The position numbers were made by a program, and so were the translations under genes. A DNA stretch of 63,250 nt, counting the filler. It is 11 parts of 11 records of this genome, joined end to end, with 100 filler letters (N's around TTAATTAATTAA, not from the genome) between each part and the next. Parts side by side here need not be neighbours in the genome. Positions count along the whole stretch, not along the records: positions 4,917 to 10,311 come from SRR15195285_431; 10 more parts are not named here. One strand, 5' to 3'. Positions 4,817 through 49,974 of this stretch are shown here, piece by piece. Below the pieces are notes generated by a model that was not told where the DNA came from, did no database searches, and saw only the letters and a program-made list of their open reading frames with translations. Numbering within the stretch: the first letter of the stretch is position 1; each line of letters opens with the position of its first letter.

Positions 4817-4916
4817 NNNNNNNNNNNNNNNNNNNNNNNNNNNNNNNNNNNNNNNNNNNNTTAATTAATTAANNNNNNNNNNNNNNNNNNNNNNNNNNNN
4901 NNNNNNNNNNNNNNNN
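4817..4916. other. Artificial contig spacer (N44-TTAATTAATTAA-N44); same spacer at 10312-10411, 15975-16074, 23501-23600, 30284-30383, 37031-37130, 44129-44228, 50035-50134, 53930-54029, 58937-59036
   Basis: Identical 100-nt linker with stops in all six frames, present ten times. Confidence 0.98.
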
Positions 4917-5138
4917 ACCTTACGGCACCAGTCAAAATTTACAAAAAAATCAGAGTTTTTCTGCGATGATTTGCTGTGGGCGCCCTGGCGCCGCGCCGGG
5001 TCTGTGCGTGCGCCATGCACGCGCCCACGCACGCACGCACCGGCGGCGCGACGCGCGGTCGAATGAACGCGCGCGCGAGGTCGCGTCGCGGTACTAGCTA
5101 GCTGCTATAGTACGCGCCGGTGGCACCGACCCGGCGAT

Positions 5139-8100
5139 ATGAAGGAGAACAAGACCATGATGGCCCTCCTGGCCGTGGCGGTGATTCTGGGCACGCTGGG
5201 CCAGAGCAACGCACAGACGGCGCTCGACCTCTTCCAGCAGGCGCAGGCGCTGGAGAACGAGGGCTGCACGATCACGTACGTGCCTTCTTGTCTCCTTCCT
5301 GTTCGTCTCTCTCCGTCATCCCTCTCTTACGGATTCGTTGGCACTCTGGAGAGAGAAGCTATTTCCTCTGCTATTGGGGGTTCGGAATGTTTTGCTGCTG
5401 GTGTTGGTCAAGATGCTGATTCAATGGGAGCAGGTACCCTCGGGGGCAGGTGCACGGTGGGGGTCATCGTCGGCTGCAGCTCGGCCTCGGCGCCTTGACC
5501 TCCCAGACATGCTCGCTCGCAACCGTCCAAGACCGAGCGGCAGAGGTGGACGCAGCCTGCTGCCCAGGAGACTCATGCGGTGGGCAGCAGCCCAGTTCGT
5601 GCGACTACCACTGCGCTAGCCACTTCGTGCCGTTCTATGCAGACTGTGGCACGCTCCTCAGCTCCGTCGGCCAAGATATGAGCGCGGTCAACGACATGTG
5701 TACGCCCAGCAGCACCAGCCAGATATCCAAGGCGGTGCAGAAGGCGGTGTGCCCTGACGCAATTCTTAGCTGCCACAATCCGACAGGCCCGATCTTGTGC
5801 GTCGATGAGACCGCCGGCGGTGGCGCCAACGCGGCAGAACTATCCGAGTGTACCAGCTGGACCAGCCAGGGTGGTGGGTGGAGAGCCAGTGGCGAACCAT
5901 GTGGTGGTATTGAATCGATCACAGGCTCTGCAAATTTGATCCAGAACGGAGATTTTGAGACCCCAACGCTTGCGCAGGCGGATTGCATGGGTGGGCATGA
6001 CTCGTCGTTCCGTGGGGACGACCATTGCCAGTACAAGTACTTGTACCCACCCATCTCAGAGTTTTGCCACGCCGACTGCCAAATTCCTGGGTGGCAAATT
6101 GGTGAGGCTGACACGGTTGCATCCGCAGGAGTCTACATTGCTCTAGCCGAGAACGGGAATATACCATGGGGAGGACTTGATTCACACATGGGTCGCCAGT
6201 ATCTTGTGTTGGAGGGCGCGGGAACTTACGCACAGCAGACACTCTTTGGCTTGCAACGTGGATCAGTCTACGAAGTCCGTCTACGGATGGCCAATCGGCC
6301 CGGCTATGGTGATGAAGAGAGCGTGGTGATCAAGGTGGACAACCATGTGGTCGGCGAGAGCAGCCATCCTCCCGACGACTTTGAACAATTTGGAACTGCT
6401 TTTACTGCTCGGAGCTCACAACCTGTACTGCGGATCGAGAACGACACTCCTAGTGACGATGATACGGCACTATTCATCGATGAGGTGACGGTCACGCCCG
6501 TGCAATTGGGAGCTGCAGTGGCCATTACCAACGGCGGTTTTGACGAACAGAGCGTGACTGATGACGGCGGCTTCACGTACACGACACCACAGGGGTGGAC
6601 TAGCTCGGGATCTGTGTTGATACAATCGGGTGCGTCGCCCTGGGGAGGTGTATCTGCCAACTCGGGGACCAACTTTCTTGGCCTGCAAGGGATGGGCGCT
6701 TATGTAGAACAGACAGTAGGTGGTCTCTCCGCTGGCACAACGTATGTCATCCAGTTCAGCTTTGGCGATCGTCCTGGGTACGGCGAAGACGAGATGATGC
6801 ACGTGAAAATCGATGGTGTTGTGATATGGGAAAGCATGCACCCTGAAGATGGGATGTCTTGGTACTCAGCAGTCTTTACAGCGGCGGCCGAAGCTGCTGT
6901 GCTTCGATTTGAAAACGATTCTCCGGAAGGCGACCGGTCTGTATTCCTTGACTCTGTGTCTATATTTACGACAGCAAACGGGCTGTCAGTTGTCCTTCCC
7001 GATTCATCTAGCGAATTGCAGCTATTTGACTTCCAGCTGTTGAACATTCCAATGACCTGGGAGGACGCAGAAGCCGAGTGCGAGCGCCGCAACCGTAAGC
7101 TAGCGTCAGTGCACTCCATCGAGGAGAACAACTATATTGCAACACTTCACCACGCAGACGATGCTGGCTTGTATGACGGGGCGTGGATCGGCGCACGTGA
7201 TTCAGCTGATGGTACTGGCGAACCAGGCTGCTGCTGGTCGTGGGTAGACGGCACAGAGTTCGGTGCGGCGCCTTCAGTTTTCCTAGCCACTATCAAGCCT
7301 GACTGATCCTGATATATGCAATTTTTTTGCTGTAGATTGGCACAACTGGGGTGCCGGCGAGCCCAACAACGGGCGCGCAACCTGCCCAGCGGATATTCGT
7401 GACGATGGGACGTGTGGCGAGAACGTGGCGCTGATTGCTGCTCACTTTTCTACTTGGGACGATCATCCAGAGTCAGGCGGTGGCAACGAACGCGACGCCG
7501 CCCGAAGCGACTACCAGTGGAATGATGCTGGGTCATCGTCCTTGGAACAAGCTGTCTGTGGCGCACCGTCCCAAGCAGGATCGCGGACCACCTTAGCATA
7601 CTACTCGTTCGACGATGGCACTCCACGCGATTGGAGCGGCAACCATAGAGATGGCGTCATTGAGGGTGGCGTCACGTTTGTTGATACTGGTGTCTCAGGC
7701 AAGTCGGCCAGCTTTGACGGGACGGGTCGAATTGTTGTGTCTGCGTTCCGGAACTGGGCGTGGGGGCAGCATTTTGCAGTTTCGACATGGTTTATGCGTA
7801 GTCCAGACGGTGCAGGCAACTACGAAGGCATCGTCAACAATGGGTACTACACGCATGGGTCTTGGGAAATCCGCATGGGGAGAGAGATGGGTGGCACCTC
7901 AATAGGCGGTGGAATCATTACGGAAGGGCACGGTGAAGCTTGGGATGTCAACGGCCTTGGGGCCCGTGTCAATGTATGGCACCACGTTGCCCTCGTGTAT
8001 GACTCGGACACAGTACATTTTTACCTCGATGGACAGCGCACTACAGATCAAGCCGACCACGGTGACATCGTCGCGCGAGCGACTGATGTGGTCATTGGCC

Positions 8101-9959
8101 AAGCAGGAACCGGAAGTGATCACGAGGTGAGCAATGCCATCTCTGCGGCTCGCTGGCCTCTCACAAAACTTTCTCAATCGCGCCGATGCTTCCTGCCATA
8201 TCGGACAGTACTTTACCGGGCTCATCGACGAGGTGAAGATCTTCAGCCGCGCCCTAGGACACGATGAAGTGCTGGAGATATTTCGCTCGACTGTCCACAA
8301 TGGTAAGCTTTGTGTCTATGCCTGCTCTTGATGTCGTACCAGCAACTGACTGTCATTGCGTTTAAACTCAGGTGGACACTGCGAAAACCAGGCTAGCCAT
8401 TCGCATTGCGACACGTCCAGTGGAGATGGGAACTTTGATTATTGTGACGGAACGAGTGCAAGGCAGGTCCATGATTTAGGAGCAGCACACGGGACTGTCG
8501 GACAGCCAGAGTACGAGAGTGGAAACATTGGAGACTCAAATGAGGTCTGCCACCCGAGCGCCTCTCTCATTGCTGATGGCGAACCAGCGGGACTAGCACG
8601 AAACAGTCGCAACTATGGCGTTCTTGATGGCCATGCTGTTACTGCCTGCCTCGAGGTCGAATGGGACGCAGAACTGATGAGCTCGGGAATCAGATTTGCG
8701 GCAGCGTCTTCCGACGAAGAAGTCTGCCAATCTGCAGACTATAACTGCGCAAGTGAGTACTGTGGCACTGGGGGATCGTTTCTGGTGTTCGCGTCCGGCG
8801 GTCAAAGGGCGGGTCTCACGGACTACAGCTCGTTTTTTTACCAGGGTACGGCAACCATCGCCACGGATGATGGCGGCGCGGGCAATGGGATCGACGGTGC
8901 AATGCTTTTCGATGAGATGACATTTGACCAAGGTGAACAAGCGGTGCAGTACTTGATGCTCTGCCGGTCAGGCGCAGGTCGCGCTCGAGATAATATTTTG
9001 ATTGACTACGTTGCGCTTCGAGCATCTGCTCGCGACTATGAAGAAAGTGCTGGCAGCCATTGTGACCCACGTCCTGCTCCACCACCGCCTCCACGTGGTG
9101 AAGCATTTGCGCCTCGGCCATACTTCAATGTCAACAGCTACGATGGTGTATCATACAACGGCAGAGAATGGGTGGATGTCGCCGGCACTGGGTCCGAAGC
9201 AGCCGTTAGTGGAGCGCACTTTGTGCAGGCCACCCTCCCGAAGCATTTCCAATTTGACGGCGATACTCACTTCGTCTTCGATGATCCAGCTGTGTTCGAC
9301 TTCCGCGGGGACTTCAGCGTGTCTGTTACTGTGAGGCCCCCGCCAAATCTTGAGCCGTTCCATATGCTCCTATCGCGACGCCGTGACTCCGACTACACAA
9401 CACACCACCAGTTGTTCGTTGATACACGGTGAGCACGTGCTAACACTGCTTGTTCATTGATCCACGTATGACGTACACGTGCTAACACTGCTTGTTCATT
9501 CCTGTGACAGGAGCACGTGGGTTGGAGATTGGCTGGTAAGCGGTTCTGTCTATGCCTGCTCTTGATGTTGCACCAATAACTAACTGTCATTGCGTTTATC
9601 CGAAGGTGGGCGAGCCAGTAGCCGTATTCTACATGGGCACGGGCACTGACGGTGTGTGGGCATATACAGCACCTTTCGCTGTCGGTGACTTCGTTCATCT
9701 GACGTTCGTTGTGAGTGCTGGGCGAATCTGTGGATACACCAACGGTGTCAGGTCTGGCGATTGCTCAGCGAATCTCAGCGACAATCTGAGACAGCTCGGT
9801 ACCGGAGTACCTCTTGAGGTCGGCGGTGAAGACTCGTACACATCGCATCCGCTATGGTCGATGGCGTCAGTCATTTACTATGATCGAGCACTATCAGAGG
9901 AGGAGGTCAGCTACAACTACGCTGCATCGAATTGCCTCGAGCTGGAAAGCGGCTGTTGA
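5139..9959 (+). CDS. Secreted multidomain lectin-like protein (Cys-rich N-domain, two DUF642/CBM-like beta-sandwiches, C-type lectin, two LamG/ConA-like domains)
   Basis: Exons 5139-5275, 5434-7262, 7336-8126, 8209-8302, 8372-9428, 9511-9535, 9606-9959; all introns GT-AG and frame-consistent. Signal peptide; NLIQNGDFE and ITNGGFDE repeats; CTLD motifs TWEDAEAEC, WIG, WVDGTEFDWHNWGAGEPNN; LamG motifs WHHVALVYD, FTGLIDEVKIFSRAL, YYDRALSEEEV. Confidence 0.85.
9434..9500 (+). repeat. 25-bp perfect direct repeat inside intron 9429-9510
   Basis: CACGTGCTAACACTGCTTGTTCATT at 9434-9458 and 9476-9500; each copy contains a branch-point-like GCTAAC. Confidence 0.9.
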
Positions 9960-10205
9960 GTCATCTCCGACTCATCTGTACGCTAATTGCAAGTAGCCGG
10001 ATTCTTTATCACCGGTGTCATGTGCGACATGTGTTATCGACCCACCAGCGCTGGGCGTAATTTACGATGATATTGAAGAGAATCACTGCAGTTTCAGTTT
10101 ACATTTTGCGTCCCTCGTATAGCAGACCTATAAGTGAGGTAACACAATCAAGGTGGAGCCACACTCTCTTGCACTGAGCCATTCTCTGGACTACGCATGC
10201 CACAA

Positions 10206-10311
10206 TCACAAAGCAATCTGTGACTCTACAGCCAGCTCATCGGCTGCTGGCTCATCAGCTGCTAGCTCAGGCTCGACATCAGCTTCGACAGGCTGCGACT
10301 CTACAGCCAGC
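10206..10311 (-). CDS. 3' end of a truncated gene with acidic repeats (LAVESQ...EPAADELAVESQIAL*)
   Basis: Open frame from the contig edge to TGA at 10206-10208, with a repeated peptide. Confidence 0.4.
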
Positions 10312-10411
10312 NNNNNNNNNNNNNNNNNNNNNNNNNNNNNNNNNNNNNNNNNNNNTTAATTAATTAANNNNNNNNNNNNNNNNNNNNNNNNNNNNNNNNN
10401 NNNNNNNNNNN

Positions 10412-28702: not shown

Positions 28703-30283
28703 TTGCCAAACTTTCTCCCTCAAGGAATGGCAGTGATGAACCCACTGGGGATTTACGCTGGGGATTTGCCCATGTTTTTGGAGGCAGCGGCCCTCGTGGT
28801 GGCACTGCCATCCACTAGCCAGGGATTTGCCCATGTTTTTGGAGGCAGCAGCCCTCGGGCTGCACGATGGTGGCCCTGGCAGGCGATGTCCGCAGGTACG
28901 GATGCTGCAGCAGCAGTGTCTGAGACGCTTCAATACGCCATAGGTAGTGCACTGGCGGTGATGGCTGGGCACGGATGGGTAATCGTCGACTGGACGATGC
29001 GGGAGGATGAGAAGGCTGTGGCTCGGACGGCGCCGCGTACGAGCGGACGGCAACGATCGGCCGTGTGGGTCCGGCGCATGCAGCACGAAGAGGAGGGTAG
29101 CCTCCCACCCCCGTCGGCAATGATGCGTGATGAAGCTGCGGCGCACGCAGATGAATGTACCGTGGAAGCTACCGAACCGCCGCGAGCAATAGCGCTGATG
29201 CACAGCTGTGCGGAGCTGCAGCGCATGCAGCGAGATGAAGAGCGGCACGTTGGTAGAATGTGGGAAGAAGAGCGGCACCGTCGGGCAGAGGAGGAAGCAA
29301 TACAGCAGCAGCAGCTTCTTCTGCAGTCGCATGCTGTGTACTGGTGCAACAAGGCGGCGCAGTCTCCAGCAGCTGACAGGCTGCGCGCAGCGTTGCAGGC
29401 CGTTGCTTCACTGGAGGCTGAGTTTGCTACGTTGCTGCAGCACACGCAAGATCAGCTGGTGCAGACACCACGTGCAACTGAGCCCGCAGTGTCCCTAGTG
29501 GAATCGACCAATGACGCTGGGCAGCAGTCATCAGCATCTTCACATGGGCATCTAGCATGTGCGAGTAAACAGGCACCACAGTCAGCGCTGGACCTGGCCA
29601 TAGCTGCCGAAGAGAGAGCTTTACGAGAAGTGATCGCCAGGCGTGAGGAGGACGAACGTCAGTTTGAGCTACTGGAAGCGACACAGCAAGCACGGCGGAA
29701 AGAAGCAGAGATGCTGGGTAGGCAAAAATTAGCAGCGACGCGTGCGGACAAGTTAGCGACAGAAGCAGAAGTGCGGACGTCAGCCGCAGGAACGAGTAGA
29801 GCGCACCAAGAAGAGGAAAGCCCACTTGAGATAGACGCGCACGCACCTTCACTCGGAGACTATCAACGTAATCCGATGATGGAGGTGGCAGCAGAACTGG
29901 GGTTGGAAGAAAGAATTCTTGAGTCTGACGGTGGCGAGGACAACGACCTAGATGACGAGAGTGATAGTGATGGTGACAGCAGTGATCATGGCGGTGATTG
30001 TGGGAATAGTAGCAAAAGCAGCGCTGCGCGGACCACTGGGACGATCACAGATTCACAGCACCCAAGACAACCAAGAGCGGACACGTATCAACGTAATCCG
30101 ATGAAAGAGATGGCCGAGAGAATAGAAGCCGAAGGGGTAGAATCATTTGGTGATGAAGCAACAGTAACAAGCGTTGCTGCAGAACACGAGCATATAATGG
30201 ATGTGGAAGCAGCTGCACGCAAGGCAGCTGCAGAAACGGCAGAGGCAGAGGTAGCGCGACTAGCCGCTGAGGAGGAAGCTGCG
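28703..30283 (+). CDS. Low-complexity coiled-coil/acidic protein, 3' truncated; start uncertain
   Basis: Long open frame rich in E/A/R, with the internal repeat YQRNPM twice; runs into the spacer. Confidence 0.6.
28761..28857 (+). repeat. 36-bp direct repeat (35/36 identical), 61-bp spacing
   Basis: GGGATTTGCCCATGTTTTTGGAGGCAGC(G/A)GCCCTCG at 28761-28796 and 28822-28857. Confidence 0.85.
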
Positions 30284-30383: not shown

Positions 30384-33300
30384 CCATACCAACAGCGGAA
30401 ACTTCATCGAGGAGCAGCAGCAGCAAGAAATGCATCGACTTGAGTTAGCGCAGCGAGAACGGGAGCAGGTACAGTGGCTGCGCAAGAGGGAGAAGGACAT
30501 TTCACAGACCATAGCACAGGCTGCAAACACCGTAGACGCGGAGGTAACCCCGCACATTCAGCGGCAGCCGTCAGGCACAGCGTGGAGAGAAGTGCCTACT
30601 TCAGAGTCTCGGACACCTAGTTCCTCATCACCTGAAGACGCTCTTGACAAGCCCACTTCATCCTCCGAGGCTTCATCGGCTCCTGCTGCACGTACTGCAC
30701 AGACTCCCCATAACCGGCCTCCAGTATTGTCGCCCGAGGATAACGTGGATCCACGCGTCTCATCGAGCTCAGTCGGCTCAGCCAAACAGGGGCGTGCTTC
30801 AGAGGAAGCACTGTGGACACCGCGAACAGCACAGGAGCGCCGCGTGACTGTGAACTTGCGGCAAAAGACATCCCAGCTCGAGCAAGAAAATGCTCAGCTA
30901 AAGAAGCAGCTACAAGACTCCCGCTCGGCAGGTGCAGTTGTCAAGCAGGAGAGCGCGGCGATGGTTTTGCGGTTGCGACAGGCTACGAAAGACTTAGAAC
31001 GCGAACGGGTGCGGGCTGGTGACGAAAGTAGAGCCCGAGCAATTTGCGAAGGCGAGCGGGATGCCGCTACCACAATGGCCAGGGCGGCAACAGACAAGTT
31101 GGCCGCGATCGAGCGCGACCAGGAACGGTACCAGTCATCGATGAAAGACCATGCTGACAGGTCCAAGACGGAGGAGTTGTCTACACGGCGACATGCAGAA
31201 AGGGTTAGAACACATTCGCCGAGGCAGCCAGACGAGGAGCATCACTGGCAGAACGAGTCGTCCGAAAGCAGCGGCAGTGGACCCAGTGTGGCTGGTGGCC
31301 CAGCATGGGAAGTGCTCAACGTACAGCTTGAAACGGAGCGTGACGCACTTAGGGCGGCAGAAGATGCTTTATTGGAATCGGAGCAAAAGCACAAACTCTA
31401 CGGGCATGATTCGTCTGCGTCTGACAAGCAGGAAGCTGGTGCTCAGTCTCGGGATTCCGAGGATGACTCAAGGCAGATGGCTGCCTCCCTGCGCCGGTCT
31501 CTGTCACCACAGCCTGAGAGAGGAAATTTGTCGAGCCCTGTACAAACGCTTGAAGAGCTTGAGCAGCGATGGGCCACGTCCGCGCAACAGCAAACAGCAA
31601 TCGCTAGTCCCTGCGATGGCCCAGCTTCAATACTAGCATCCGCAGAAAACGATGAACCGGGATTGATAGAAGTAGTGTGCCCAATAGGTGTCGCAAGCGG
31701 CGACTGGCTTACTGTCGAAATCGGCGAAGAAGGTGGTACACTTGATGTACAGGTACCGCCTGGGATTAATCCAGGCGATGCATTCCTTGTCGATGAACGT
31801 GAACAGGTTGGATCGTTGGTGACAGGTTTGGACGAATCCAGTGCTGCCGCAGCGGCAGCAGCACTCGAAGCGGCAGAACAGCGCGCAGATGAGTCAGAGC
31901 GAGAGCTCAGCGAGGTGATGGCCCAAGTTGCAGCTGCCTTGCAACGACGCACAGAGGATGCCGCCAAAATGGAACAAATGGAGTTAGCTCTAGCGACAGA
32001 AAAACAAGGGCGAGCAGCCGACCAGGCTGGTCTGAGCTCCTATCTAGACCGTGAATCGAGTCTCAAACAGTCTTTGGCTGAAGAGGAGCGACGGACAGCA
32101 CAGTCTGTGCAAGAGCTGGAGAGCATTCGAGGGCAACTGGAGATTGCAGAAGCTGAGCTACAAAAGGAAAAGCTTGCGCACGGGGAAGCCAAAGCTGAGA
32201 CTGAACGACTGATGGAGCAAGCCCGAAACAGTGCTGCGGACGTCGCGAACGCATCTGAAACAGCGTCTGCAGCGCTCCTTGCAGAGCTCCGTATGGAGCA
32301 GAACGTACGCAGTGCAGCTGAGGACGAGGTTCAGACGCTGCGTGCCGAGCTGACTAATGCGCAACATACGTCTGCCGAGGTGGCACGTTTACAGGCCCGC
32401 GTGGAACAAGAGCAGAAATCGGTAGCGGAGGTGCAGAAATCTCTCGAGCTAGCAGAGAAAAAGGTGTCAGAGGTTGTCGAGGAAACGGCATCAGCGATCA
32501 TGTTGGCACGGGCAGAGGAAGCTGCATTAGCCGTAGTGAACGCAAGAAGAGATTTGGCATCAGAAAACGAAGAGTCAGTAGCGAAAGCCGTAATGGCTGA
32601 GCGATCACGGTTAGAAGCCATCCATGCATCAGCGTCACAGCAAGCCGCAGAAGAAATAGCTCTGCTGAACACAAAAGCGAAAGCCCAATCTTTGCAGGAA
32701 AAAGAAGCGGTGGCGCTATGGGAAGAGCAAGAGACTGCATTGATGCGACAGCTAGAGGAAGCTGAGAATGATCTGGCAGAAGTGACACAGGCATATCCAC
32801 TGGCGTTGGAAGAAGCTAAAGCTTCCCTAGCAGCGGCTCACGAGCTGGAGTTGCAGGCACTGCGAGATGAGCCTCAGCCTGAGCCTGAGGACATGGTGCA
32901 TGTGAACGAGTTGGTGGCGGAGATAGAAGAGCTGAAGGTAGCGGCAGAAACACAGGCGCAACAAGAACAGGCTGCTGTTAATCTGTGGGAGAAGCAAGAG
33001 GCGTTGTTGACTAAGCAGATCGAGGAAGCAAAGCATGATCTGGAGGTCGCTCGCGAGACGAGTGCTGAGTTAGAGTCACGGAGCACAGCTGCTGCGAAAG
33101 AGATAGCCGATCTGAAGGCACAAACAGAAGCACAGGAGGTGCAAGAGAAAGAAGCGGTGACGCTGTGGGAACAGCAAGAAGCCGCATTAATGCGACAACT
33201 ACAAGAAGCCGAGAGCGATCTGGCTGAGCTCACACAGGCGTATCCTCTAGCGCTGGAGGAAGCTAAAGCTTCGCTAGCTGAAGTGCACGCACACGAAATG

Positions 33301-35732: not shown

Positions 35733-37030
35733 TCACGCCGTCGCCTCTGGCTCCGTTTTCTCCTCGGCTGGTGGTGTATCGCCAGCCTGTGCGCTGGCAG
35801 GTACTGGAGCCTCACCGCTCGGCGGCAACCCTAGAGCCGGGTTTTGCTCTGCCTCAGGCTCAGCTGCCGGCTCCGCTGCTGGCTCAGGCTCAGGCTCCGC
35901 CGGCAGCTCGGCCTTGTACGTCGAGATTAGTGTGAGTGGAATGGCCCGGAACGGGTTCTCTGCGTTCAGCGTCCCGGATTCAACCATCTTAGCCAAGGTG
36001 CCCTGCTCCTCGCGAACGGCCATGTAAGCCGCCTGTGCTTCGGCGCTCTCCCATTCCTCGAAAATGAACATGGTCGCGCCTTTCTTGTATGATCGCATAG
36101 ACAGGATACCTTTCTGCGACGCGGTAAATGCCAGGCCGTCTTCCGACTGGGACCACGCAAGCAATTCGGCGTACTTGGCCTCATCGGCCGCATTGATCTC
36201 GACGGCAATGTGAAAGCCGACTTCGCCAGTCGTCTTCTCGCCCGTAATGTCCCACGGCACTGCATCCGTGAGCGAGGCGATATCCGGAGCCTCAAATTTA
36301 TCCATAACGCCAAGCGCCGCTTTGTCCAGCGGCTCCGGGGCCGGCTCGCCCTCAGCGGGCGGCTCCCCCGGTTGGCTGCGCTCGCCACGGAGTGCTAGGT
36401 AGGCTTCCTGCGAAGCTGGAAGATCCCACTCCTCAAACAGGTCTGCGCGTCCCAGCACACGCAACAACGGCACGCGGAGTCAGGGCTGCAGATTCTTTCG
36501 CTGCCAGCGCACGGCGGAGACTTGGCAACACGGCGGACGCACAGATGCCGGTCTCGGTCGTGAAGCACTGGACAAGGAGGCACCCGCTCTGACTCTTCGT
36601 GAGCGGGAGTCCGTCCTCGGTGTCGGACCATGCGATCCACTCGTCCACGCCCACCTTGCCGTCCTTGCACTTGATCTCGAGCGTAGACGTGTGCCCGACG
36701 TACCCGGCGAGGTATTTGGCCGCCATCCTCTGGTCTAGCTCGTTCACCTTAGCGGAGGCGGCCGCCGACGCCGCGGCAGCTTTCTCGCTGATGCCGTGTG
36801 TTTCGTCGAGCTCCTTGGCCTTGGCGGCAGCGGCCGCCTTGGCGGCGGCGGCCTTCTCAGACGCGCCCGTCTTCTCGTCGAGCTCCTTGGCCTTCGCTGC
36901 TGCCGCCAGCCTCGCCGCGGCGGCCTTGTCCGACAGACCATGCTTTTCGTCCATCGCCGCCGCCTCGGCCTTCACCACCGCCGCCCCCGCCGCAGCCTTC
37001 TCCGAGATGGCATACTTCGCGTCAGCCGCC
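35733..37030 (-). CDS. Protein with Ala/Lys-rich LEA-like repeats and two ABM (dimeric alpha-beta barrel)-like domains, 5' truncated
   Basis: Intron 36542-36443 yields TETGIYLFEEWDLPASQEAY; second copy MFIFEEWESAEAQAAY; both preceded by EDGL..T.SQ.G; repeats KAKELDE..G.SEKAAAA. Confidence 0.7.
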
Positions 37031-49925: not shown

Positions 49926-49974
49926 TAGTACCATATCAACGATCGTTTGTACTATGATCGTTGATATGGTACTA
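49926..49974. repeat. Perfect 19-bp inverted repeat with 11-nt loop
   Basis: TAGTACCATATCAACGATC (49926-49944) / GATCGTTGATATGGTACTA (49956-49974). Confidence 0.9.

Follow-up and report, generated by a model that had tools for sequence, protein, structure and literature searches.

The origin of new spliceosomal introns is still debated, and we know of no demonstration in vivo of any step in a mechanism of intron transposition. Among the described systems, the closest to the locus reported here are the fungal same-gene duplications of near-identical introns identified by van der Burgt et al. 2012 and summarised by Collemare et al. 2013 (PMC3609843). As that summary presents them, the non-segmental half of these duplications comprises two similar introns in one gene only and at different positions, which are few, of ordinary length, without a special fold and without duplication of the exon flanks; the authors suggest transposition inside the same transcript. 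Intron transposition more widely is tabulated in a 2012 review that could assign only 14 events to it, with cases from Oikopleura and Mycosphaerella (PMC3443670, Table 1), and in the reverse-splicing model given there the insertion of an intron into its own mRNA is an explicit part. Introners, as delimited by Gozashti et al. 2022/2025 (PMC9860276, PMC12130899), are sets of similar introns, four or more in number, whose host genes belong to different paralogy groups; their families, known from Micromonas, Aureococcus, dinoflagellates and Dothideomycetes, usually run to tens to thousands of copies in unrelated genes. Intron gains in Daphnia are lineage-specific, possibly polymorphic and accompanied by short direct repeats, and the inserts are mostly of unknown or unrelated origin.

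The locus described here comes from an uncultured marine protist, most likely a picozoan, and lies in a window of 63,250 nt, that is, the whole stretch of DNA analysed, made up of 11 contigs. Two introns of one gene, intron A (8303..8371, plus strand; 69 nt, phase 1, GTAAGC...CAG) and intron B (9536..9605, plus strand; 70 nt, phase 0, GTAAGC...AAG), closely resemble each other. As in the fungal pairs, similar introns were found only within the same gene across the 63-kb window, at different positions and between unduplicated flanking exons, and A and B are of ordinary length with no special fold. In contrast to the fungal pairs, they occur in a marine protist, are 83% alike rather than near-identical, share a 6-nt target, and have relatives that indicate which copy is the older. 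The pair is most readily understood as an intron copied to a new site, and we consider it probable, from the sequence comparisons set out below, that B is a copy of A at an unrelated site and hence a non-segmental same-gene intron duplication. The pair would then record, with unusual clarity, how an existing intron gave rise to a new one; events of this kind are rare but already known from fungi and from a small number of animals, and the pair alone is a single anecdote.

The host gene (5139..9959, plus strand) was modelled by hand as seven exons and six introns with a CDS of 4287 nt (1428 aa), and the spliced CDS is open across 1428 codons, its sole stop being the terminal one. Its Pfam domains (DUF642, C-type lectin and two Laminin_G_3) predict a secreted, multi-domain, lectin-like protein of carbohydrate-binding type. 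The first intron (5276-5433) is tentative. An intron within the C-type lectin domain (7263..7335, plus strand; 73 nt, phase 1) was placed by a change of frame and the continuity of the motif; none of the RNA joints observed falls on it. Intron D (8127..8208, plus strand; 82 nt, phase 0) has GT..AG ends and an RNA joint at 8124|8207, carried by RNA contig 25, and intron C (9429..9510, plus strand; 82 nt, phase 2), which adjoins B, has an RNA joint at 9427|9510. These last three introns are unrelated in sequence to A and B. Intron C contains an exact 25-nt duplication, and its 5' end shares a 9-nt direct repeat with the next exon. Between C and B lies a micro-exon (9511..9535, plus strand; 25 nt) encoding S-T-W-V-G-D-W-L, which is joined on both sides in one RNA contig and is colinear in homologues. 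A further loose end at 6393/6429, seen in runs X1 and X14, was not interpretable as an intron.

A and B are the shortest introns of the gene, at 69-70 nt versus 73-158 nt for the others. In A the branch motif is CTGAC, with its A at 8349, and in B it is CTAAC, with its A at 9583; both lie 22 nt from the acceptor. GT...AG ends, the branch motif and the interrupted open frame predict that both are U2-type spliceosomal introns.

Global alignment of A with B gave 58 matches, 11 mismatches and one gap over 70 columns (Jukes-Cantor distance 0.18), with identical blocks of 22 nt (8313..8334 = 9547..9568, plus strand) and 16 nt (8349..8364 = 9583..9598, plus strand), the latter beginning at the branch-point A. 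The original prediction had given the coordinates, lengths and phases of the two introns and this match with the lengths of its two blocks, all of which were reproduced exactly, and it had placed the introns between the peptides STVHN|GGHC (A) and GDWL|VGEP (B) in a TG|GTGG context, which was confirmed. Its description of the copying as recent holds in a relative sense only, with A and B differing at 16% of aligned sites. The whole extent of the likeness is 8301..8375 at A and 9534..9609 at B (both plus strand), running from 2 nt 5' of the donor to 4 nt 3' of the acceptor (TG|GT...AG|GTGG, identical at the two sites), with none beyond.

This likeness stands out from every background that was examined. 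With blastn-short, B was the sole match of intron A in the 63-kb window (E 2e-13), and in a self-BLAST of the window the pair appeared as 76 nt at 84% (E 2e-15), among five repeat pairs in total. A 20-mer from the first block matched twice in the window at up to 3 mismatches, and 0 of 100 shuffles gave two matches. A profile built from A and B recovered both with nhmmer at E ~1e-21, the next match having E 1.8. The other nine pairs among the gene's five short introns reached 55-63% with the same aligner, versus 83% for A and B, and 2000 shuffles of B with the splice signals kept gave a mean of 42.7 matches (sd 2.6, maximum 52) against the 58 observed. On the alignment, shuffle, BLAST and profile results, chance likeness of A and B is excluded.

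A lack of splicing had been named as an outcome that would refute the copying, and for B RNA speaks directly against it. Contig 28 of RNA run X16 joins 9427|9510, its match to the DNA stopping at 9537, beyond which it carries an overhang of 10 nt equal to 9608-9617; this 10-mer is unique in the window, so that the overhang spans intron B, the RNA evidence for B being this one low-depth contig and its 10-nt overhang. For A no RNA junction was seen, and its splicing is supported indirectly, by stops and homologues. Intron A holds two in-frame stops; its retention would end the protein at residue 960, and retention of B at residue 1321. Fourteen homologue clusters read ...HN/HG-GGHCEN... unbroken across site A; a conserved protein requires the removal of A. 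The sole RNA-library contig over A (X14 record 15, 8300-8591) is unspliced; X14 and X15 contigs are colinear with the DNA across introns generally and are uninformative on splicing, and stretches that they leave uncovered carry no weight as evidence.

Similar introns at unrelated positions, alike up to their borders, in an aquatic microbial eukaryote also recall the introners (PMC9860276, PMC12130899), which according to PMC9860276 occur disproportionately often in aquatic organisms. Had an introner, a mobile transposon that creates introns and has further copies elsewhere in the genome, inserted independently at the two sites, with a TGGTGG-like target or a GGT target-site duplication, one could readily account for a likeness confined to the introns and an identical exon context at both sites, and the intron positions of this gene family vary across nearly all lineages seen, as active gain would give. 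We regard this origin as quite unlikely, however. BLASTn of the intron against the assembly had been proposed as a way to count copies; run on the 63-kb window of the assembly, it gave two, A and B, which share a gene and a strand; this is below the published threshold of at least four introns in different paralogy groups (PMC9860276, PMC12130899). No third copy was found at profile sensitivity anywhere in the window, including the 58 kb contributed by ten further contigs of that assembly, and blastx found no A/B-like read-through peptide among 150 relatives' ORFs. A protein search with an ORF reading through intron B returned 16 exon homologues, none with an intron-B-like peptide, and one with a 66-aa ORF spanning exon 4 together with parts of introns D and A returned only the window's own ORF. 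Scans with a 20-mer found no true copy in JGI metagenome contigs and no match in GTDB genomes or IMG/VR, collections that may not contain the organism; one JGI match (L001) was rejected as a chance match, its likeness being limited to the 20-mer. A protein-guided search for the locus in GTDB genomes gave 39 pattern matches and 0 relatives.

The structure of the two introns points the same way. In the accounts cited above, many introners are marked by terminal inverted repeats or by a duplicated target site, whereas no inverted repeat links the two ends of A or of B. The introner-like elements (ILEs) of fungi exceed regular introns in length and have a stable predicted fold; A and B resemble them in neither respect, being no longer than the gene's other introns and folding no better than shuffles (z +1.96 and +0.39).

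The reading that B was copied from A leaves the shared exon context to be considered. The joined exons at both sites read TGGTGG, a hexamer with four occurrences in 4134 nt of spliced CDS, two of which are the A and B junctions. This common context fits the target-site preference that had been proposed, from a single event. GGT lies on both sides of both introns; since the two loci have this triplet in common and it falls partly within the splice consensus, a GGT target-site duplication is indistinguishable from a target preference (n=2). The GGT at A and B and the 9-nt repeat at C resemble the short direct repeats of the Daphnia gains, although a 3-nt repeat is also expected from the splice consensus alone, and in contrast to the Daphnia inserts the source here would be an intron of the same gene. 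With two copies, mechanism, target-site duplication and target preference cannot be established.

The comparison of orthologues suggested in the original prediction was informative on direction: distant relatives lack A and B where these sites are covered, and near ones are interrupted at A and continuous at B. Among the former, four ORFs from Picozoa single-cell genomes (P0147, P0075, P0074 and P0082) are uninterrupted at every A or B site that they cover (4/4), a 748-aa unspliced ORF from a 72%-identical lineage (P0135) reads through sites D, A and C, and all 14 homologue clusters that are at most 72% identical and cover site A are continuous there. Judged by these distant relatives, both introns appear to be the derived state. 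A clade of 10 rows, 89-97% identical, has support of 100/100. All four close relatives in this clade that reach site A begin inside an intron there, and at this site the 97% relative reads PLRQNS|GG, compared with SLRLNS|GG in the window. At C and B, in contrast, 10 of 10 close-relative ORFs covering both sites are continuous, an absence judged from ORFs rather than nucleotide sequence; the uninterrupted form would read ...GATTGGCTG-GTGGGC.... Intron C is absent in all relatives covering its site, and the outgroups lack both C and B. On the tree these two introns occur in the window row only (1/14 rows), which is nested (99/99) with a relative without them.

Since close relatives are interrupted at A and continuous at C and B, A looks like the parent and B like its daughter, and B appears young. 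This polarity would fall if the relatives' contigs were cDNA with A retained, which is unlikely because the ENA-sourced ORFs regularly read into introns and several of the contigs are 6.8-8.1 kb long. As a separate observation, intron positions in this gene family differ among nearly all lineages seen.

A different history would make B (with C) as old as A and lost in the relatives, for example through a cDNA-mediated process that removed the two 3'-most introns at once, or would have A copied from B. The joint loss of adjacent 3' introns is the classical reverse-transcriptase pattern in the review's account (PMC3443670), and in other close lineages P0111, P0119 and P0107 are interrupted near the B site: their ORFs start at or just past the B boundary, which places an interruption within 9 codons upstream. 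As no start codon lies between them, the C, 'STW' and B sites are inseparable in these three ORFs, and the suggestion that P0111 and P0119 are interrupted exactly at B was weakened, the break being possibly at C, 'STW' or B. P0107 is identical over 108 residues to the continuous P0113, and this patchy interruption near B implies that B may be older or polymorphic. The idea that the 376-aa relatives have B without C was rejected, for their ORFs begin at an internal Met and show no break at either site. We nevertheless judge this history very unlikely. The presence of C and B in a single row nested beside a relative without them would need several losses, and site A is interrupted in every close relative reaching it. 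In addition, over the last 21 nt of A the divergence between the window and the 97% relative is similar to that between A and B, which would date the copy near that split, a comparison made by back-reading from the peptide only.

A duplication of exon and intron together, the flanks having since diverged, could be imagined in a gene with two paralogous LamG-type domains, and homologous flanks had been named as another outcome that would speak against copying. We consider it extremely unlikely. Pfam places A past the end of the first Laminin_G_3 domain (profile position ~151) and B near position 53 of the second, and the sole weak domain-domain alignment sets B opposite the middle of exon 3, not A. 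BLASTP of the exons flanking A and B gave a best E of 0.2, the DNA likeness ends 2 and 4 nt outside the introns, and relatives exist without both introns. The flanks being unrelated, this is not an exon-intron duplication, and the similarity of A and B is unexplained by similarity of the encoded protein. That unrelated introns were made alike by selection on a shared element, such as a small RNA or splicing enhancer, or by chance is scarcely credible: the identical blocks (22 and 16 nt) exceed expectation from even 16% divergence, but chance is excluded as described above, A and B match nothing in Rfam at E up to 1 and fold no better than shuffles, one block spans the branch point and pyrimidine tract that any intron requires, and relatives without both introns argue that the gene requires no conserved element there.

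The inference of intron copying or transposition is supported by likeness bounded at the splice sites between unrelated flanks. On this reading, a copy of A would have been placed 1.16 kb downstream, on the same strand and still within the gene, at another TG|GTGG site that is not homologous to the first. Since it came equipped with a GTAAGC donor, a CTRAC branch point and an acceptor, the copy would have been spliced from the start with the reading frame kept. Two routes may be envisaged. In one, which we put forward tentatively, the excised A lariat would reverse-splice into its own transcript at a mimic of its own exon junction, followed by reverse transcription and recombination. In the other, which is plausible but doubtful, the nearby intron would have served as the template for an insertion at the DNA level while a break was repaired, with TGGT/GGTGG microhomology priming the synthesis. 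The locus resembles the reverse-splicing transpositions as presented in the review (PMC3443670) in having a new intron homologous to another, at a formerly intron-less site and with exact splice boundaries. It differs from them in that a DNA-level templated copy is an equally good fit.

The pair offers a probable parent and a probable daughter in one gene with an identical 6-nt target, a second new intron (C) adjoins B and leaves a 25-nt micro-exon, and close relatives appear to lack the daughter. These features make it a good natural test case for reverse splicing versus repair-templated copying. The pair would also give a first indication that introns are being actively gained in Picozoa, a major uncultured group of marine heterotrophs: the literature searched, which included the main texts of two surveys (PMC9860276, PMC12130899) and a supplement, contains no mention of introners in them. 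A broader proposal is that Picozoa are in a state of active intron gain, in which ordinary short introns would copy into matched sites (here TGGTGG) and strains 90-97% identical would differ in the presence of introns, A and B being parent and daughter and other lineage-specific positions having arisen likewise. We think this unlikely.

Single-base variants occur at 8308 and 9463 in DNA run X1, which contains both introns and in which no intron-less joint was seen. As X1 may be the source sample, it is not independent evidence. The 8308 variant was also seen in P0150, a cluster mate of the 66-aa ORF, which otherwise has the same genotype as the window.

Introns A (8303-8371, + strand) and B (9536-9605, + strand) of one gene align over 70 columns with 58 matches, 11 mismatches and 1 gap, including identical blocks of 22 nt (8313-8334 = 9547-9568) and 16 nt (8349-8364 = 9583-9598), so that both alignment and searches confirm the pair as originally noted. 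The match scored E 2e-13 in blastn-short and E 2e-15 in a self-BLAST of the window, where it was one of only five repeat pairs. A profile search of the window recovered both introns at E ~1e-21, the next match having E 1.8. A and B are 83% identical, as against 55-63% in the nine remaining pairs drawn from five introns of the host gene, and their 58 matches compare with a maximum of 52 in 2000 shuffles. This likeness is far beyond chance. It spans 2 nt 5' of the donor to 4 nt 3' of the acceptor (TG|GTAAGC...AG|GTGG), and the flanks outside TG|...|GTGG are unrelated. The inference that an intron had been copied is supported by a likeness that ends at the splice borders, by unrelated flanking exons and by distant relatives without an intron at the A or B sites they cover.

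The host gene (5139-9959, + strand) was modelled by hand, with a script check, as seven exons and six introns, all on the + strand: a tentative intron 1 (5276-5433), one at 7263-7335, D (8127-8208), A, C (9429-9510) and B. Its spliced CDS of 4287 nt has a lone stop at the terminus, and the protein carries Pfam domains DUF642, a C-type lectin domain and two Laminin_G_3. Many ORFs of >1000 codons run without interruption elsewhere in the window, and introns are therefore not dense in this genome. The window's 11 short contigs are chained by N44-TTAATTAATTAA-N44 linkers (a six-frame stop linker) at 4817-4916, 10312-10411 and nine more sites, and genes either side of a linker have no physical linkage. 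The piece carrying the gene, 4917-10311, is at least partly present in 19/23 listed public runs (16 studies; seawater and marine metagenomes and metatranscriptomes). The source organism is most likely a picozoan, because homologues of the gene share 90%-identity clusters with EukProt proteins named as Picozoa sp. single-cell genomes. At 6391-6429, contigs of the DNA run X1 and the RNA run X14 break or continue into unlike sequence; this stretch is not readable as an intron and is perhaps a strain variant or paralogue junction.

Both introns have GTAAGC donors, AG ends and a CTGAC or CTAAC motif with its A 22 nt from the acceptor. Splicing of B is directly supported by a single low-depth RNA contig that carries the junction (record 28 of run X16). 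This contig aligns to 9290-9427, jumps 82 nt with GT..AG ends, resumes at 9510-9537 and ends with 10 extra letters, unlike the next genomic bases, whose sole window match, 9608-9617, follows directly on intron B; the two sides of the B joint have the GT in common. The join of 9427 to 9510 and the matching overhang indicate that C and B were both removed and, as the contig has junctions on both sides of it, that the 25-nt micro-exon between them (9511-9535, + strand) is real. Another X16 contig joins 8124 to 8207 across D. Contigs from the RNA runs X14 and X15 are colinear with DNA over the introns (8300-8591 across A, 9438-9582 across C and B); being unspliced RNA or DNA, they say nothing on splicing.

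For A, the predicted splicing stands on stops and homologue continuity, its junction being outside the cover of X16 and the X14 contig over A being unspliced. Intron A contains two in-frame TGA stops, its retention would end the protein at residue 960, and the site is unbroken (...ST.H(N/G)-GGHCEN...) in 14/14 covering homologue clusters of at most 72% identity. These observations give strong, if indirect, support for removal of A from the transcript. P0121, a 516-aa JGI ORF of the window genotype, is a genomic read-through of A, C and some of B in which TGA is translated as Trp, an annotation artefact of the wrong genetic code on a eukaryotic contig.

Relatives came from a full HMMER search whose query was the exon separating A from C (62 proteins) and from word-index searches (16 and 14 proteins), the sets more or less overlapping. 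They are contig-level ORF predictions, many of which run into introns at their ends or read through introns in frame, and therefore reflect the intron state of the underlying DNA; single-cell genomes are DNA by nature. Four ORFs of named Picozoa single-cell genomes are continuous at the window intron sites they cover: P0147 through D, A, C and B, P0074 through D and A, and P0075 and P0082 through C and B. P0135, a 748-aa ORF of the 72%-identical sister lineage, has two introns of its own in frame; it shows no break at the 7263, D, A and C sites and then enters an intron after 'STW'. The orthologue comparison proposed originally thus found distant Picozoa relatives without an intron at the A and B sites covered, and the unbroken ORFs indicate that A and B are both derived within the window's lineage.

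In a maximum-likelihood tree of 14 rows the window groups with P0098/P0116 (99/99 support), nested in a 100/100-supported clade whose 10 rows share 89-97% identity. The ORFs of all four clade relatives reaching site A (P0098, P0116, P0112, P0118) start within an intron at that site, its acceptor being YCAG|GT and its phase that of the window; P0116 reads PLRQNS|GG against SLRLNS|GG in the window and so carries an orthologue of A. At the C and B sites, 10/10 covering close-relative ORFs are continuous (P0098, P0116, P0112, P0118, P0115, P0108, P0110, P0113, P0120, P0117). Taken as DNA, these states would make A the older intron, gained on the clade stem, and B and C the younger, gained later on the window branch. 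Divergence between A of the window and A of P0116 is about that between A and B, a rough comparison on few intron bases back-read from peptides, and suggests copying somewhere near the window/P0116 split. If the continuous relatives were cDNA with A retained, the A-to-B polarity would be lost. This is unlikely, because ENA-sourced ORFs of the gene family regularly run into introns, because several relatives' contigs (6.8-8.1 kb) exceed the ~5-kb pre-mRNA, and because retention of A in 4/4 lineages with C and B spliced in 10/10 would be odd.

Three ORFs of close relatives, P0111 (95% identity in the last exon), P0119 and P0107, start at or just past the B boundary. With no ATG, GTG or TTG in the 9 codons upstream, their contigs must be broken at some point among the C, 'STW' and B sites. 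Over 108 residues P0107 matches the continuous P0113 exactly; near-identical lineages therefore differ in whether this 9-codon stretch holds an intron, a patchiness that could reflect polymorphism, repeated gain or loss. Run X1 carries variants in intron A (8308, C>A) and intron C (9463, C>A), the former also in two JGI-derived ORFs, P0121 and P0150, and the A+C+B genotype is therefore present in more than one data set.

On the best reading, A is an ordinary intron that was duplicated non-segmentally within its own gene to give B, A being the parent and B the daughter. Both spliced junctions are TG|GTGG, and the contexts of three other introns checked differ. Of the four TGGTGG sites in the spliced CDS (4134 nt), two are the A and B junctions; the chance of hitting one of the three other sites is ~3 in 4133 under uniform insertion, and softer if a splice-compatible context is required. 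A may have reverse-spliced into a site resembling its own ligated junction, or a repair-templated copy may have been primed by TGGT/GGTGG microhomology; the shared context is compatible with either, and the mechanism is open between the two. GGT could possibly also be the target-site duplication of a transposon, a reading of one event only; A and B had no terminal inverted repeats, matched no Rfam family and gave no predicted stable fold. Membership of an introner family is possible, but two copies in one gene within 63 kb fall below the threshold stated in PMC9860276 and PMC12130899, a minimum of four introns from different paralogy groups. Against it also, blastn-short, self-BLAST and the profile search found no third copy in the 63,250-base window, and no A/B-like read-through peptide (E <0.05) occurred among 150 relatives' ORFs outside the window's own genotype, five ORFs of which contain one (P0121, P0114, P0109, P0149, P0150). 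A and B have the length of ordinary introns, which sets them apart from the introner-like elements of fungi described in PMC3609843. Exon-intron duplication is contradicted by domain positions (exon 3 spans positions 3-127 of the first Laminin_G_3 profile, the following 31 residues complete the domain and A lies after its end; B lies at the start of the last exon, ~8 residues ahead of position 61 in the profile of the second), by flanks that, as originally claimed, are unrelated (BLASTP, best E only 0.2), and by the sole weak domain-to-domain alignment, which sets the B site against the middle of exon 3.

The closest category to the same-gene copying of A is the non-segmental half of the fungal 'same gene duplications' of introns described in PMC3609843 (82 members in 24 species, half segmental), where three C. 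elegans cases also appear. Next closest are the intron transposition events of Oikopleura and Mycosphaerella (PMC3443670, 14 events assigned in its Table 1). The literature searched, with the main texts of PMC9860276 and PMC12130899 and one supplement of the former, holds no report of introners or intron gain in Picozoa. Intron copying within one gene is a known, rare kind of event, and A and B are most likely a further case, here in a probable picozoan.

Within intron C a 25-nt segment is duplicated exactly in direct orientation (9434-9458 = 9476-9500), which doubles the intron's CTAAC motif, and a 9-nt direct repeat links intron positions 3-11 (9431-9439) with the start of the following exon (9511-9519). 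Flanking direct repeats of this kind are reported for repair-generated introns. C is missing from every relative covering its site, and the micro-exon is flanked by two introns, both apparently lineage-specific. Read-through peptides of P0135, P0011, P0012, P0028, P0087, P0090, P0093, P0097, P0115, P0120 and P0147/P0092 place introns at many lineage-specific positions, namely after STW, NNGY, HFQF, SYTNH and GEPVA and before LARNS and VTACLEV. Across relatives, introns occupy three or four different places within the ~15 codons surrounding the micro-exon, and intron turnover looks unusually high in this picozoan gene family. The repeat unit of C (9444-9456, 9486-9498) is complementary at 12/13 positions to an exonic stretch at 8934-8946, ~500 nt upstream, a match that could be accidental or could mark a templated fragment. 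Further repeats of the window comprise a 139-nt pair, 82% alike, that lies in an ORF of 1751 codons, along with two short-period tandem arrays and a 49-nt palindrome (32693-33278, 36733-37023, 28761-28857 and 49926-49974).
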